Shown here in pieces: positions 12,292-18,003 of a DNA stretch of 64,000 nucleotides. Within the stretch, counting starts at the first letter, position 1, and each line of letters opens with the position of its first letter. Under the pieces are notes generated by a model. That model saw only the letters and a program-made list of their open reading frames with translations, ran no database searches and was not told where the DNA came from. The translations under genes were made by a program, and so were the position numbers. Source of the stretch: Bacteroidales bacterium (GTDB taxonomy: Bacteria; Bacteroidota; Bacteroidia; Bacteroidales; CG2-30-32-10); NCBI GenBank assembly GCA_035353855.1, contig DAOQAK010000002.1, positions 10,967-74,966 on the forward strand, given 5' to 3'.

Positions 12292-13518
12292 TTATTTCGA
12301 ATACAATGCAATAATTTTCAAAATAACCTGGACTGCCTTTTCCATGCTTTCCACAGGAACATATTCCATTTTACCGTGGAAGTTATGTCCGCCTGCAAAT
12401 ATGTTGGGGCAGGGAAGTCCCATGAATGAAAGTCTTGCGCCATCGGTTCCTCCGCGGATAGGAACAACTTTCGGAACAATGCCAATTTCTTCCATTGCTT
12501 TTTTTGCGGTTTCAACAATGTGAAATGTTTTTTCAACTTGTTCACGCATGTTGTAATATTGATCTTTTATTTCAAGAACGACTGTATTTTCGCGGTATTT
12601 GGCGTTCATGTAATCGACCGTTTGTTTGATGAAAACTTTTTTAGCTTCAAATTTTTTACGGTCATGATCGCGGATGATATATTGGATGCTGGCATTTTCA
12701 ACACTGCCTTCCATTTTTATCAGATGATAAAATCCTTCATAATCCTGTGTGAATTCAGGTCTTTCATTAACAGGTAACATGGCGTTGAATTCCATGGCGA
12801 GAATCATTGCATTTATCATTTTATCCTTAGCATACCCGGGATGAATGTTTCTTCCGTTGAAAATAACTTTAGCATGAGCGGCATTGAAATTTTCATATTC
12901 AAGTTCCCCAATACCGCCGCCATCCATGGTATAAGCAAATTCTGCATTGAATTTTTCCACATCGAATTTATCAACGCCGCGACCTATTTCTTCATCAGGA
13001 GTAAACCCAATTTTTATTGTTCCGTGTTTTATTTCAGGATGGTCAATTAAAAATTTTACGGCAGTCATTATTTCAGCAATTCCTGCTTTATCATCGGCGC
13101 CAAGTAATGTATTTCCATCAGTAGTTATTAGTGTTTGTCCTATGTATTCTAATAATTCAGGAAATTCTTTAGTGGAAAGAACAATATTTTTTGTTTGATT
13201 CAAAACAATATCTTTACCATCGAAATTTTGAAGGATCTGCGGATTCACGTTAACACCGGGCATATCAGGGCTTGTGTCCATGTGAGCAATGAAACCTATT
13301 ACAGGGATTTTCTTAGTAGTGTTAGCAGGAAGTGTAGCCATCAGGTAACAATGTTCATCGAGTGAAACATCTTTCAGCCCCATTTCCTGAAGTTCGTTTT
13401 GTAATATCTTTGCAAGATCAAATTGTTTTGATGTGCTTGGATAAGTCTGTGAGTTATCATCAGACTGTGTATCGATTTTTATGTATTTCAAAAATCTTTC
13501 AAAAACTTCTTTTTTCAT
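12292..13518 (-). CDS. pepT: Peptidase T (tripeptide aminopeptidase, M20B)
   Basis: [45 protein letters not shown]. Confidence 0.96.
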
Positions 13519-13538
13519 AAATAGTAATATTTAAAATT

Positions 13539-13578
13539 TAACCACAGAGAAAACTGAGTACGCACAAAGAGCACGGAG
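13539..13578 (+). repeat. Left 40-bp inverted arm of the GxxExxY cassette
   Basis: TAACCACAGAG-AAAACTGAG-TACGCACAAAG-AGCACGGAG; 29/40 ungapped identity to the reverse complement of 13961-14000. Confidence 0.8.
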
Positions 13579-13579
13579 T

Positions 13580-13957
13580 TTAGTATCCATGTATTAATCG
13601 TTTGATACCATCTTTTAATTTAACTACATTAAAATTTATTAGCAAACCAATTCTGCATTTAGATAACTTCAAATATGTCAAAACTTGTGCAACATGAATA
13701 TCATTTATTGCATCAACTGATTTTATTTCAATAACCACGCTATTTTCAACAAGTAAGTCAATCCTATAACCGCATTCCATTTTTATTTCTTCATAAATTA
13801 AAGGAAGTGGTTTTTCTTTTTCTACAACTAATCCTGATTTAATAAGTTCATAAAATAAACACTCTTTATAAGCAGACTCAAGTAAACCAGGACCAAGATT
13901 GCTATGAACTTTAATTGCACACCCAATAATCTTTTCCGTTATTTCATTTTCTTTCAT
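13580..13957 (-). CDS. GxxExxY protein (PD-(D/E)XK_3 nuclease fold)
   Basis: MKENEITEKIIGCAIKVHSNLGPGLLESAY, YRIDLLVE, IEIKS, GLLINF; ATG at 13957 (the ORF-track extension reads through the repeat arm and opt). Confidence 0.92.
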   Translation of the reverse strand: MKENEITEKIIGCAIKVHSNLGPGLLESAYKECLFYELIKSGLVVEKEKPLPLIYEEIKMECGYRIDLLVENSVVIEIKSVDAINDIHVAQVLTYLKLSKCRIGLLINFNVVKLKDGIKRLIHGY

Positions 13958-13960
13958 TCT

Positions 13961-14000
13961 CTCTGTTGTTTCTGTGCCTGCTCGGTGAACTCTGTGGTTA
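13961..14000 (-). repeat. Right 40-bp inverted arm of the GxxExxY cassette
   Basis: Minus strand TAACCACAGAG-TTCACCGAG-CAGGCACAGAA-ACAACAGAG, ending 3 nt before the ATG. Confidence 0.8.
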
Positions 14001-14003
14001 TTT

Positions 14004-16016
14004 TTAATCTTCTTCTTTAGCCCGGAATGATTCCCATACAAAGTATGCTATAAGCCCTATAAAAGCAACTAAAGCTGTTACCTGTGCTCCAACAGAATTT
14101 TCATCACCCCAAACTTTAAGATTCAGTACTTCACCATCACCGGTAAAGAAAATGATGAATGCACCAATTACACCAAATAATGCTGCTCCTGCAATAAATC
14201 CCGATGATATAAGAATACCACGTTGAACACGGGAATTAGCCAGCTTTTCATTTTTAGTACTTTTAGTAAACCAATGATTCAGCAATCCACCAACAACAAG
14301 AGGCGTGTTAAGAGGAAGCGGAATGAACATACCTAATGCGAAAGCAAGAGGAGATATTTTAAGCCAGTTGATCAATATGGAAATAATTGCTCCTATGCCA
14401 AGTAAAACCCAGCTAACACCAGCGCCTGACATCAGCGGTTCAATAATTGCTGCCATTGCATTTGCCTGTGGTGCGGTCATTGGATTCGGGTGTTCGGGTG
14501 TTTGAACAAAACCATATGCCTGGTTTAAAATAAATATAACAATACCAACAGTTGCAGCAGAAACTAATGTCCCCAGGAATTTAAATGATTCTTGTTTTCT
14601 TGGAGTAGTTCCAAGCCAGTAACCAACTTTTAAATCGGTAATAAAACCTCCTGCCATTGACAATGCAGTACAAACAATTCCTCCAATTATCAATGAACTT
14701 ACCATTCCCTGCCAACCTCTTAATCCAACGGAAACAAGTACAGCTGAAGAAAGTATCAAAGTCATTAATGTCATACCTGAAACAGGATTAGAGCCAACAA
14801 TCGCTATTGCATTTGCGGCAACTGTTGTAAAAAGAAATGAAATAATCAGTACGGTTAATAAAGCTACGATTGCTTGTACCAGCGTAATTTTAACTCCGAA
14901 TATCAGGAAAATAAAAACGGCGATCAATGCCAGAAATATGAACAACATCACAAAAGACATTTTCAAATCTTTTTGTGTTCTTTCAACTTTGGCTTCAGCA
15001 TGAGTTTTTGCTCCCATTCCAAAAGCCAGTTTGAAAGCACTTCCAATTACTCCTGATGATTTTATAATTCCTATAATTCCGGCCATTGCAATAGCGCCAA
15101 TTCCGATAGGACGAACATAAGCTTTGAAAATTTCTTCTGCTGTCATGGCATCAAAAGGATTTACTCCTCCGCTTAATGTTGCCGAAAGATTTCCAATTTC
15201 GTTGACCAGAGGTATTAGAACTAACCAGGATAATAATGATCCAACAGTTATGATCAGTGCATATCGGAGTCCAACCAGATAACCAAAACTAAAAATCAGG
15301 GCGCTTACATTGAATTTAAGAACCATTTTTACTTTGGTGGCAAGTGTTTCTCCTATAGGAATAATACGTGTTGTAATTTCTTCACTCCAAAGTTTAAATG
15401 CGGAAAAGCAAAAATCAAAAATGCCACCAATTAAACCACTAACGATAAGTAGTTTTGCCTGGGTGCCGCCTTTTTCGCCGGTCATAAGGATTTCTGTAGT
15501 AGCTGTAGCTTCGGGGAAAGGAAGTTTTCCATGCATATCTTTTACAAAATATTTGCGGAAAGGAATAAGGAATAAAATTCCTAAGAAGCCTCCCAATAGT
15601 GATGAAAAGAATATCTGCCAAAAATCAACCTGTATTTCTGGATACTTTGCCTGAAGAATATATAGGCCGGGGATTGTGAAAACAGCACCTGCTACAATTA
15701 CTCCTGAACATGCCCCGATTGACTGGATAATTACATTCTGCCCGAGCGCATTTTTTTTACGCACAGCGGCTGAAGCTCCTACGGCAATAATTGAAATAGG
15801 AATGGCTGCTTCAAATACCTGTCCTATCTTTAATCCAGAGTATGCTGCAGCTGCTGAAAAAATAAGAGCCATTAATAATCCCATTCCTACAGACCATGCT
15901 GTAACTTCAGGAAACAGGCTGCTGGCTGGCATTACAGGTTTGTATTCTTCTCCCTCTTTTAATTCGCGATAAGCGTTTTCGGGTAAACTTTTAGTTTCAG
16001 TAATTTGTTCTGACAT
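14004..16016 (-). CDS. OPT-family oligopeptide transporter
   Basis: AAYSGLKIGQVFEAAIP, LPFPEATAT, SNPVSGMT, DLKVGYWLGTTPRKQ, APQANAMA; many TM segments. Confidence 0.93.
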   Translation of the reverse strand: MSEQITETKSLPENAYRELKEGEEYKPVMPASSLFPEVTAWSVGMGLLMALIFSAAAAYSGLKIGQVFEAAIPISIIAVGASAAVRKKNALGQNVIIQSIGACSGVIVAGAVFTIPGLYILQAKYPEIQVDFWQIFFSSLLGGFLGILFLIPFRKYFVKDMHGKLPFPEATATTEILMTGEKGGTQAKLLIVSGLIGGIFDFCFSAFKLWSEEITTRIIPIGETLATKVKMVLKFNVSALIFSFGYLVGLRYALIITVGSLLSWLVLIPLVNEIGNLSATLSGGVNPFDAMTAEEIFKAYVRPIGIGAIAMAGIIGIIKSSGVIGSAFKLAFGMGAKTHAEAKVERTQKDLKMSFVMLFIFLALIAVFIFLIFGVKITLVQAIVALLTVLIISFLFTTVAANAIAIVGSNPVSGMTLMTLILSSAVLVSVGLRGWQGMVSSLIIGGIVCTALSMAGGFITDLKVGYWLGTTPRKQESFKFLGTLVSAATVGIVIFILNQAYGFVQTPEHPNPMTAPQANAMAAIIEPLMSGAGVSWVLLGIGAIISILINWLKISPLAFALGMFIPLPLNTPLVVGGLLNHWFTKSTKNEKLANSRVQRGILISSGFIAGAALFGVIGAFIIFFTGDGEVLNLKVWGDENSVGAQVTALVAFIGLIAYFVWESFRAKEED

Positions 16017-16075: not shown

Positions 16076-16360
16076 TTAAATAGGATTTTCTTGATATTTA
16101 ATAAATCCGAATATATCAATGATATGTTCGTTTGGATTGATATAAAATACTATTGTATACCCTTTATAAATTAAATCTCTTATATTTTCATTTTCAAAAT
16201 AAATTGACTTTCTGTGTTTGTAAGGATTGGGAATGATATTGTTTATTTCTTTAATAATATCATTTTTAAATTTCCTTGCTCTTGGAGGGCTGTCTTTTGC
16301 TATATAATCAACCTGCTGTGAGAGCCTTGAAATAAAAGAATCTTTAACCCTTATTTTCAT
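16076..16360 (-). CDS. RelE/ParE-family type II toxin
   Basis: 94 aa; DYIAKDSPPRARKF, IRDLIYKGYTIVFYI; ATG at 16360 overlaps the 3' end of the upstream small gene. Confidence 0.8.
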   Translation of the reverse strand: MKIRVKDSFISRLSQQVDYIAKDSPPRARKFKNDIIKEINNIIPNPYKHRKSIYFENENIRDLIYKGYTIVFYINPNEHIIDIFGFIKYQENPI

Positions 16361-16583
16361 TTTTTTTAATAATGTTTTCAAGATTATTTTCCAAATCTTC
16401 TATAGAATGATAAGTGGCATTTCCTTCTTTTACCTGATTAAATTCATTCAGAAGGTAGTTTTGTATGGATAAGTATTTCTCATCTTCGGTGATTACTTCA
16501 ATCTCATTTTTTTTAAATTTTCCCAGTAAACGCATGAGATTATTATAAATGTTGTCGCTAACGCGTATCCGTAATGTTTGCAT
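16344..16583 (-). CDS. Cognate antitoxin (putative)
   Basis: 79 aa, MQTLRIRVSD RHH-like start, acidic C-half, 17-bp overlap with the toxin. Confidence 0.65.
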   Translation of the reverse strand: MQTLRIRVSDNIYNNLMRLLGKFKKNEIEVITEDEKYLSIQNYLLNEFNQVKEGNATYHSIEDLENNLENIIKKNENKG

Positions 16584-16630: not shown

Positions 16631-17908
16631 TTAAATTTTATCTAAATCAATTTCCAATAATTCATCCCATTTTGTAGTAAACTTTTTTGAAAGCTTTTCC
16701 TGCCTGAGCTTCCATCTGCGGTGTGTACCCTGTATGGCATATTTTACAACATCTTTTCCCATAGTTGCAGTGATGCGGTCGAGAACGGGCATTATTTTTT
16801 TTTGTTTACTTCTGTCAATGTTATCCCAAAAGCTGAGCTGTTCGTGGGTTGCAGGAATTAATTCAGTAAACATCACTCCAGCTTTTTTATATCGGTATCC
16901 TTTTTTAAATAATAATTTTAGAAGTTTTGCAGCATGTTCAATTAGTTCGGGAGTATTGTTTGTAGGAGTTGTAATATGAAGCGTTTTAAAATTCACGTAT
17001 TTTGGATCATCCGAAAAACGGTTTGTCATAACAAAAACCGTTATTACGGTTACGTAAGAATTTTGTTTACGCAGTTTTTCAGCACATCGTGATGTGAAAG
17101 TAGAAACCGCTTCTTCAAGAATAGAGTACTCGGTAACAGCTGTTCCAAATGAGCGTGAGTGGGTAATTCCTTTTTTACCTGGCGGATTTGATTCCATCGA
17201 AATGCATGGTTTTCCGCGAAGCTCCTCAACTGTTCGTAACCCAACTATATGCAAATGTTTGCGTATCCAACTGTCATTCATTTTTGATAAATCCAATGCA
17301 TTGAGAATATTTTGTTCTTTCAAAAATTTTGAAAATTGCCACCCGATACCCCAGATATCGTTGACCGGTGTAAGTTTCAGTGCTTTTTCAAAATCATTGC
17401 TGTTGGTCAAATCCATTACCCCGTTAAAGGCATCATGTTTTTTTGCAAGATGATTGGCTACTTTAGCAAGGGTTTTTGTTGTACTGATTCCAACAGAAAC
17501 AGGAATGCCTGTCCATTGCAAAACGGTATTTCTGATTTTATGTCCATATGCTTCATAATCTTTTATATTCATACCTGATATTTCAAGGAAAGCCTCGTCA
17601 ATACTATAGATCTCAATATCTGATGAAAAGTTATTAAGTATTTCCATTACACGATTCGACATATCGCCATATAATGCAAAGTTGGAAGAAAATACGGCAA
17701 CATTATTTTTTTCAATAATATCGGTCATGTGAAATGCAGGCTCTCCCATTTTTATTCCGATTTCTTTAGCTTCTTTTGAGCGCGAAATAACACAACCATC
17801 ATTGTTTGAAAGCACCACCACGGGCTTATTTTCAAGCCGGGGAGAAAAAACTTTTTCGCATGAAGCATAAAAACTGTTGCAGTCGATTAATGCAAATATT
17901 TTTTTCAA
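16631..17908 (-). CDS. umuC: Y-family DNA polymerase, UmuC-like (DUF4113-type tail)
   Basis: FALIDCNSFYASCE, YSIDEAF, TKTLAKVAN, WKLRQEKLSKKFTTKWDEL; probable TTG start at 17908. Confidence 0.88.
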   Translation of the reverse strand: MKKIFALIDCNSFYASCEKVFSPRLENKPVVVLSNNDGCVISRSKEAKEIGIKMGEPAFHMTDIIEKNNVAVFSSNFALYGDMSNRVMEILNNFSSDIEIYSIDEAFLEISGMNIKDYEAYGHKIRNTVLQWTGIPVSVGISTTKTLAKVANHLAKKHDAFNGVMDLTNSNDFEKALKLTPVNDIWGIGWQFSKFLKEQNILNALDLSKMNDSWIRKHLHIVGLRTVEELRGKPCISMESNPPGKKGITHSRSFGTAVTEYSILEEAVSTFTSRCAEKLRKQNSYVTVITVFVMTNRFSDDPKYVNFKTLHITTPTNNTPELIEHAAKLLKLLFKKGYRYKKAGVMFTELIPATHEQLSFWDNIDRSKQKKIMPVLDRITATMGKDVVKYAIQGTHRRWKLRQEKLSKKFTTKWDELLEIDLDKI

Positions 17909-17957
17909 TGAGATGTTCTTAGAATTTTTAAGTGTGTTATGTTTATACAAAAATAAA

Positions 17958-17984
17958 GAAAGCCCGGAAGATTTCCGAGCTTTC
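17958..17984 (-). terminator. Intrinsic terminator of the C25 genes, overlapping the umuC promoter region
   Basis: 12-bp stem (one G.U on the minus strand), 3-nt loop, followed by UUUAUUUUUG; contains GGA-AGATT-TCC. Confidence 0.7.
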
Positions 17985-18003
17985 AAAATATTTGTTGAGA
18001 AAA

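Follow-up and report, generated by a model that had tools for sequence, protein, structure and literature searches.

Within the window, by which we mean the whole stretch of 64,000 nucleotides of a Bacteroidales genome that was analysed here, the minus strand between positions 12292 and 16016 carries, in gene order, an OPT-family oligopeptide transporter gene (opt), a short GxxExxY gene and pepT (Table 1). The GxxExxY gene is enclosed by two inverted arms, with which it forms a cassette of 462 bp whose distance is 3 nt to the stop codon of opt (14004-14006) and 20 nt to the pepT ATG (13518), such that the opt-pepT gap would measure 23 nt if the cassette were taken out. An initial annotation of this DNA had assumed that opt and pepT are normally neighbours, and in relatives the two genes do lie side by side, 33-118 nt apart. 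The cassette has terminal inverted repeats, no transposase domain was found in its protein with Pfam, no target-site duplication is visible around it, and an Rfam scan of positions 13300-14200 (E up to 10) returned matches at chance level only. Farther upstream on the minus strand of the window lie, at 16076-16583, an ORF for a ParE-family toxin (PF05016, E 1e-9) and a 79-aa upstream ORF overlapping it, which has no Pfam match and is probably the antitoxin, and, adjoining this pair, a gene for a Y-family (ImpB/MucB/SamB) polymerase (16631-17986).

Table 1. Features of the opt-pepT cassette and its neighbouring genes (window coordinates).
Feature	Position	Strand	Basis
pepT (tripeptide aminopeptidase, peptidase T), downstream neighbour	12292-13518	minus, co-oriented	NF003976, 674 bits
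3' arm, pepT-proximal, 40 nt	13539-13578	minus	inverted-match test; kept in orthologues L023-L026
GxxExxY/PDDEXK_3 gene, 125 aa plus stop codon	13580-13957	minus	TIGR04256 and PF13366 matches
5' arm, opt-proximal, 40 nt	13961-14000	minus	inverted-match test; kept in orthologues
OPT-family oligopeptide transporter gene, upstream neighbour	14004-16016	minus, co-oriented	TIGR00733, 266 bits

The two arms are identical at 29 of 40 positions once one of them is reverse-complemented, and their inverted match attains a best ungapped score of 18, which was reached by none of 2000 shuffles (mean 7.4, maximum 14). Both share the outer end TAACCACAGAG, which occurs twice in the 3.63-Mb genome, each time in one of these arms; in a genome search, neither a second copy of the arms nor a near-identical copy of the cassette was present. 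Each arm is built of four 7-nt units, grouped into two pairs, whose starts are spaced 9-11-9 (plus-strand positions 13543, 13552, 13563 and 13572 in the pepT-proximal arm; 13961, 13970, 13981 and 13990 in the opt-proximal arm). On the plus strand the pepT-proximal arm comprises TAACC followed by CACAGAG (13543), AACTGAG (13552), CACAAAG (13563) and CACGGAG (13572), which in the orientation of the gene are four reverse units, the first of them 1 nt past the stop codon. The opt-proximal arm, read in the orientation of the gene, comprises TAACC followed by CACAGAG, CACCGAG, CACAGAA and AACAGAG, and ends 3 nt ahead of the GxxExxY ATG. The unit consensus is CAC-N-GAG at this cassette and CRC-N-RAG across the clade, the outermost unit being extended to T(T)AACC. 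The inverted 40-bp arms with their shared 11-bp end and periodic blocks, as well as their distances from the stop codon and the ATG, had all been described in the initial annotation, and these coordinates and counts hold.

The protein encoded between the arms matches TIGR04256 (GxxExxY) over the full length of the profile (positions 1-116 of 116) with 155.5 bits against a cut-off of 35, and its sole Pfam match is PF13366 (PDDEXK_3; 149.1 bits against a cut-off of 22). Across 61 sequences six residues never vary, namely E27, D67, E77, K79, Q91 and Y95, and the last five of these supply the D...ExK and QxxxY motifs by which RecB/Cas4-like nucleases are recognized. In an AF2 model (pLDDT 94.5) the elements of the alpha-beta-beta-beta-alpha-beta core follow each other in the expected order, and the best fold match in the PDB is Cas4 SSO0001 (TM 0.58, E 3e-3), with lambda exonuclease and LHK-Exo as further nearest folds (weak E-values, and TM 0.5-0.58 over all three). 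Profile searches with PADLOC and PHROGs gave weak Cas4-like matches and no assignment to a defence system; a GIY-YIG match was absent from the profile searches and a Y1_Tnp (HUH/Y1) match from the Pfam search. A sequence search of the PDB returned nothing relevant, and no solved structure was found for the family. In the literature on GxxExxY, PDDEXK_3, PF13366 and TIGR04256 we found incidental mentions only, with no functional paper and none that links the family to repeats. As judged from profiles and model, the protein is a putative Cas4/RecB-like nuclease of the PD-(D/E)XK fold with a complete catalytic signature, and profiles, model, fold matches and literature all bear out the earlier description of such a fold in a family with no assigned function.

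The same design recurs around other members of the family. Our comparison set consisted of the eight GxxExxY genes of this genome and 80 relatives at 66-94% identity, which originate from Bacteroidota, Ignavibacteria, Acidobacteriota and anammox Planctomycetes. Each of the eight genes of this Bacteroidales MAG is preceded by forward units, followed by reverse units, or both, the motif being CACAGAG at opt-pepT, CGCAAAG/CACAAAG at five of the paralogues, CACTAAG at one and ACGCTGA/CACGGAT at one, and the arms of the relatives are built of CRC-N-RAG units. Exact units, counted per 120 nt at 81 loci, average 2.2 on the upstream side (forward) and 2.9 on the downstream side (reverse) against a background of 0.10, that is, a 22- to 29-fold enrichment at the gene ends with fixed polarity. 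Unit spacing in 31 clean cases is 9-10 / 11-13 / 9-10, 24 of these 31 loci have their innermost reverse unit 0-2 nt past the stop codon, and the cassette termini read TTAACC...GGTTAAAAA. Two layouts were seen, one with the arms split around the gene, as at opt-pepT, and the other with a complete forward-plus-reverse foldback on one or both sides. Most cassettes point in the same direction as the adjacent genes (63 of 71 for the upstream neighbour, 60 of 74 for the downstream one). The presence of arms at all eight paralogues and at nearly all of about 80 relatives answers the question, raised by the initial annotation, of whether other GxxExxY copies possess them, and we hold the gene-plus-arms architecture and its generality across the family, as described here, with high confidence.

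Arrays of units are found away from GxxExxY genes as well. This genome contains 75 unit-pair arrays, compared to 10-15 in local shuffles, of which about 15 adjoin GxxExxY genes, while the remainder are gene-less foldbacks or intergenic solo arms; one gene-less foldback of 131 nt is present twice, at 92% identity. When one genome from each of 121 genera of the order was surveyed with the pattern CRCNRAG-N2-3-CRCNRAG, the number of unit pairs rose with the number of GxxExxY genes (Spearman rho 0.54, p 1e-10), whereas the reversed control pattern was not significantly correlated with gene count (rho 0.14). The median number of unit pairs was 4.5 in genomes without the gene, which is about control level, and 60.5 in those with five or more genes. 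Exceptions include four genomes with at least 40 unit pairs in which no GxxExxY gene was detected. A likeness to REP/RAYT systems, proposed in the initial annotation, therefore stands at the level of the system, since gene-less arrays are dispersed and their numbers follow gene count, and does not extend to the enzyme, which is not of the HUH/Y1 kind.

A search of one genome, G049, with the AACCRCNRAG... pattern gave no match, and its abundant repeat proved to be a different, larger palindromic element made from the units. It is a MITE-like element of about 190 nt, present in about 80 copies (loci L115-L130), with outer inverted repeats GGCATGTTTCAT...ATGAAAGATGCC and one to two pairs of CTTTGCG/CGCAGAG units per side in its interior. 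Units within this family are spaced at 10 nt, and the arms of the single GxxExxY gene of G049 (L131) are of the same flavour with a spacing of 8 nt.

The adjacency of opt and pepT is conserved across the bacterial family and beyond, and the cassette is orthologous in five genomes, lying at this junction in G006 (L023, 93.6% amino-acid identity), in G001, which belongs to the same genus and has a shorter 3' arm, and in those with loci L024-L026 (78-80%). In orthologues L023-L026 both arms still consist of four units with unchanged spacing. The dN/dS of the GxxExxY gene among orthologues is 0.04-0.10, and dS is 0.29 between the window copy and L023 and above 2, hence saturated, between the window copy and L024-L026; as the arms are still kept, these values indicate that gene and arms are both under purifying selection. 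Between the window copy and L024-L026, identities of 78-80% for GxxExxY, 73% for PepT and 86-87% for OPT fit co-divergence of the three proteins. A single clade of these five is compatible with the data (AU test, p 0.22), and we therefore treat the cassette as vertically inherited; independent insertions at this junction had been considered in place of one origin, and the same test does not reject the single clade. On these sequence comparisons, the opt-pepT cassette is an old, vertically inherited resident whose gene and arms are under purifying selection, and has been present since the split of the lineages with 73% PepT identity.

Gene-free opt-pepT junctions, which the initial annotation proposed to look for, do exist among relatives. 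In G012 (L012) the GxxExxY gene is absent, and of the pepT-proximal arm just the outer two units remain; in G010 the gene is absent and one decayed unit is left; G009, G002 and G005 lack the gene and have units of other flavours; and G034 has a gene-less CACAGAT foldback. In L012 a palindromic repeat that is GC-rich and unrelated to the cassette, GTCATGCTGAGGAGCGAAGCGTCTCGAAG...CTTCGAGACGAGG...CCTCAGTGTGAC, has taken the cassette's place beside the arm remnant. When checked as empty alleles of the homing type, the gene-free junctions look like decayed remnants or carry arrays of other flavours. The junction was thus occupied repeatedly, and its gene-free states are mostly decay products rather than pristine empty sites. 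Of the earlier proposal that the cassette is a mobile element at this locus, the existence of gene-free junctions is thus upheld, and a recent insertion with clean empty sites is not; no movement was seen at the opt-pepT locus itself.

Past movement of cassettes is supported by the remnants and the arrays of other flavours at the opt-pepT junction of relatives and, elsewhere, by sequence alignments. Most close cassette pairs are syntenic, and a few lie in unrelated contexts, namely L048 and L062 (95% amino-acid identity) and L050 versus L098, L089 and L072 (90-91%, different classes). In the alignments of L048 with L062 and of L050 with L098 (91%), nucleotide similarity starts at T(T)AACC and stops at GGTTAA, and this bounding of the similarity by the arm termini points to arms plus gene as the relocating unit. 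No target-site duplication of 2-8 nt rose above control at 27 loci, which agrees with its absence, claimed earlier, at opt-pepT. The lack of a duplication argues against a DDE-type mechanism and fits an HUH-like or a break-and-repair (homing-like) insertion.

The strongest alternative, which we nonetheless regard as unlikely, is that the gene is domesticated and immobile, its arms serving only as operator arrays at which the nuclease, or a looped tetramer, would repress its gene and insulate it within the opt-pepT transcription unit, and that its dispersal reflects ordinary horizontal transfer and recombination. Such a role would suit arms that are kept at a fixed orthologous locus despite saturated synonymous sites, that have no second genomic copy and no flanking duplication, and whose innermost units directly adjoin the ATG and stop codon of a gene strongly co-oriented with its neighbours and left with no room for a promoter. 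It leaves unexplained, however, the gene-less foldbacks and solo arms that exceed the genes many-fold and track their number, the fact that the similarity of relocated cassettes stops exactly at the arm termini, and the repeated occupation of the opt-pepT junction by arrays of other flavours.

Since the arms are able to pair physically, a role at the RNA level is possible. As sense RNA the arm duplex has a predicted energy of -36.7 kcal/mol, compared to -18.1 +/- 3.7 in shuffles, and the unit could resemble the intervening sequences (IVS) of 23S rRNA, with the arms pairing in an opt-gx-pepT transcript and the ORF looped out and processed, for example by RNase III. The insertion would thus be tolerated in an operon, and the periodic units would be a by-product of building the stem. 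The co-orientation of cassettes with their neighbours would follow naturally, genes for four-helix-bundle '23S IVS proteins' have the same layout (see below), and the terminal inverted repeats of published IVS elements are cut by RNase III (PMC4990558). In the 28 bp of the published stem, however, a single mismatch and a single bulge are all that interrupt near-perfect pairing (PMC4990558), as opposed to 29 of 40 positions here, and many cassettes have a complete one-sided foldback instead of split arms.

The pattern of differences between arms also speaks against pairing as what is selected. Spacer identity is 0.31 between the arms of one cassette and 0.33 between cassettes, and at position 4, which is free within the unit, the arms agree with a frequency of 0.61, compared to 0.57 and 0.65 in controls, so that both are uncompensated. 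Nor is there a G-U bias on the sense strand: among the differences between arms, 78 are transversions, 47 would allow a G-U pair in the antisense only and 28 in sense RNA, and the antisense duplex would even be the more stable one (-46.6). When the flavour of a unit is defined by the choice of A or G at its positions 2 and 5, agreement within a cassette is 0.80-0.86 for positional partners, non-partners and same-arm neighbours alike, and 0.51-0.53 between cassettes; units of the same arm thus share flavour as strongly as units across arms. A base-paired stem, of RNA or DNA, was accordingly rejected by the compensation tests as the main selected constraint, physical pairing remaining possible, and we consider the RNA-level explanation quite improbable.

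The uniform flavour of units within one arm, which selection for pairing does not predict, points instead to a common reader. A single genome can contain cassettes of several flavours, every one of which has a paralogue of its own, so the reader should be specific to the cassette, and the encoded protein is the only cassette-specific factor. We infer that the units are probably oriented recognition sites for the cassette's own protein rather than a base-paired stem, and the cassette-specific reader is most plausibly the encoded nuclease. The covariation of arm motif and protein clade that the initial annotation suggested examining is indeed seen, with flavour clustering on the protein tree (5-7 changes versus about 19 with shuffled labels), as a link between flavour and protein that cannot be separated from shared descent. 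A search for specificity-determining residues gave strong raw associations, the last residue being L in 22 of 23 CGC-flavour cassettes and in none of 44 CAC-flavour cassettes, which with only two independent contrasts on well-supported branches are likewise inseparable from shared descent.

A second kind of gene is framed in the same manner. In this genome, ten genes for four-helix-bundle proteins ('23S rRNA IVS protein', TIGR02436) have forward units upstream and reverse units downstream, examples outside the window being G000 C1:110308-110622, C37:21107-21424 and C26:15951-16268. Their arms are made of copy-specific motifs (ACAAG, GTAAG, AATGCAG and others) with a period of 7-8 nt. Because these genes share the design and encode no nuclease, the design as a whole cannot be put down to a nuclease encoded in the cassette. 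Either the arms are read by whichever small protein they enclose, or both types of cassette are built and moved by one process acting in trans. The most distant alternative, in which the arrays are an independent intergenic repeat family, moved or read by another factor, with GxxExxY genes as frequent neighbours or cargo, could draw on these non-nuclease cassettes, on the four array-rich genomes with no detected GxxExxY gene and on the mismatch in spacing between the MITE-like family of G049 and the arms of its only gene, but it is very improbable given the enrichment of units exactly at gene ends, where their polarity is fixed and they adjoin the gene within 0-2 nt, a flavour that differs among paralogous cassettes of one genome and follows protein clade, and the co-variation of gene and array counts across genomes.

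On balance, we lean towards reading the 462-bp unit at opt-pepT as one member of a family-wide cassette of nuclease plus repeats. Weighing against this reading are the uniqueness of its arms in the genome, the lack of movement at opt-pepT, the existence of array-rich genomes that lack the gene, the spacing mismatch in G049, the four-helix-bundle cassettes, the inseparability of flavour and descent, and the ability of the arms to pair as RNA. In such a cassette, the oriented units would be read by its own GxxExxY protein, whose gene, having no room for its own promoter, is likely expressed by read-through from opt. The innermost units lie directly against the ATG and stop codon, and protein bound there could autoregulate the gene. 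The nuclease, acting at its units, might also start the spread of cassettes and gene-less arrays, with host repair or recombination completing it in a homing-like or REP/RAYT-like fashion that would involve neither transposase nor target duplication. That the nuclease drives this spread is tentative and rather doubtful; we know of no PD-(D/E)XK nuclease that is able to join DNA alone, which counts against it. Equally speculative, and in our view doubtful, is the broader reading in which GxxExxY proteins, as Cas4-like nucleases of roughly 125 aa, would recognize and cut inverted arrays of phased 7-nt units with TTAACC termini and so define a large class, as yet undescribed, of prokaryotic nuclease-repeat elements. 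Once mended by the host, the cuts would copy cassettes and gene-less foldbacks to new places between genes, with no need for a transposase and no target duplication; specificity would co-evolve cassette by cassette, and the cassettes of the four-helix-bundle '23S IVS proteins' would form a parallel class.

Homing endonuclease genes include that of the PD-(D/E)XK enzyme I-Ssp6803I. Akin to them, the cassette has a small free-standing nuclease gene inside a symmetric site, with half-sites flanking it as inverted repeats, and spread by break and repair, which leaves no target duplication, would apply to it as well; in contrast to them, it has no intron or intein context, and what it recognizes would be repeated short units in place of a single long site. 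With Tn7, Mu and MITEs it shares inverted ends that bear phased, oriented binding motifs, and the occurrence of gene-less derivatives (compare the G049 family), whereas it has no DDE, HUH, serine or tyrosine recombinase, no target duplication and no near-identical copies. The likeness to REP/REPIN sequences and their RAYT genes lies in a small nuclease-type gene framed by inverted short repeats that are also dispersed without the gene as foldback doublets, in a repeat abundance tied to the gene, in long-term vertical inheritance and in the absence of target duplications. RAYTs, however, belong to the HUH/Y1 enzymes (IS200/IS605 type), which are able to cut single-stranded DNA and also to seal it again, as opposed to the 125-aa PD-(D/E)XK core of GxxExxY, and REPs are individual hairpins with a conserved tetranucleotide, as opposed to arms of phased 7-nt direct units with uncompensated spacers.

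Genes for the site-specific single-stranded DNA nuclease Ssn (GIY-YIG) are framed on both sides by the NTS/SRM repeat that the enzyme recognizes in 42% of homologues, the NTS repeat has many genomic copies, and Ssn homologues possess clade-specific repeat variants (PMC11893778). A small stand-alone nuclease gene framed by a repeat, many repeat copies and clade-specific variants are thus common to both systems, which differ in that Ssn has a GIY-YIG fold with demonstrated activity and a single hairpin motif, whereas GxxExxY is a predicted PD-(D/E)XK protein with four phased units. The 23S IVS with an S23p ORF (PMC4990558) likewise places an ORF of about 120 aa between terminal inverted repeats in an element of about 430-480 nt, looks selfish, and was acquired horizontally and then retained vertically. 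It resides within rRNA and has a near-perfect RNase III stem, whereas the GxxExxY cassette lies between protein genes, has arms that are unit arrays lacking selected complementarity, and carries a nuclease fold as cargo.

By these comparisons, the opt-pepT cassette may be described as a nuclease gene framed by dispersed repeats, which is organized like the RAYT and Ssn systems at genome level and lacks their HUH or GIY-YIG domains and their hairpin repeats. Its arms offer a concrete candidate substrate, four phased CAC-N-GAG units ending in TAACC. Should the protein read and cut these units, the very large PF13366/TIGR04256 family would gain a function and the RAYT/REPIN and Ssn/NTS systems a PD-(D/E)XK counterpart; short periodic repeats and odd ORF extensions of the 'HRGTE/TEDTE' type in Bacteroidota and other phyla would be explained, and the family could supply small nucleases with a programmable-looking unit specificity. 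If the arms are only operators, the locus would illustrate how the gene of a toxic mini-nuclease is able to live stably inside an operon.

Cassettes and units also occur in local clusters elsewhere in this genome. An island on contig C9 (G000 C9:41200-53800) is rich in cassettes, with three GxxExxY genes within 12 kb plus several solo arms and foldbacks, and one of the three genes (C9:53364-53717) has an internal TAA stop. At G000 C55:2672-3268 a segment of about 580 bp is duplicated in tandem, with CTCGGTG/CTCTGTG units at the start of both copies. On contig C65 (G000 C65:15083-15583, L002), a junction of reverse arm and forward arm (about 95 nt) is found both before and after a GxxExxY gene, and the second copy of the junction is followed by another ORF, resulting in a tandem, integron-like cassette array.
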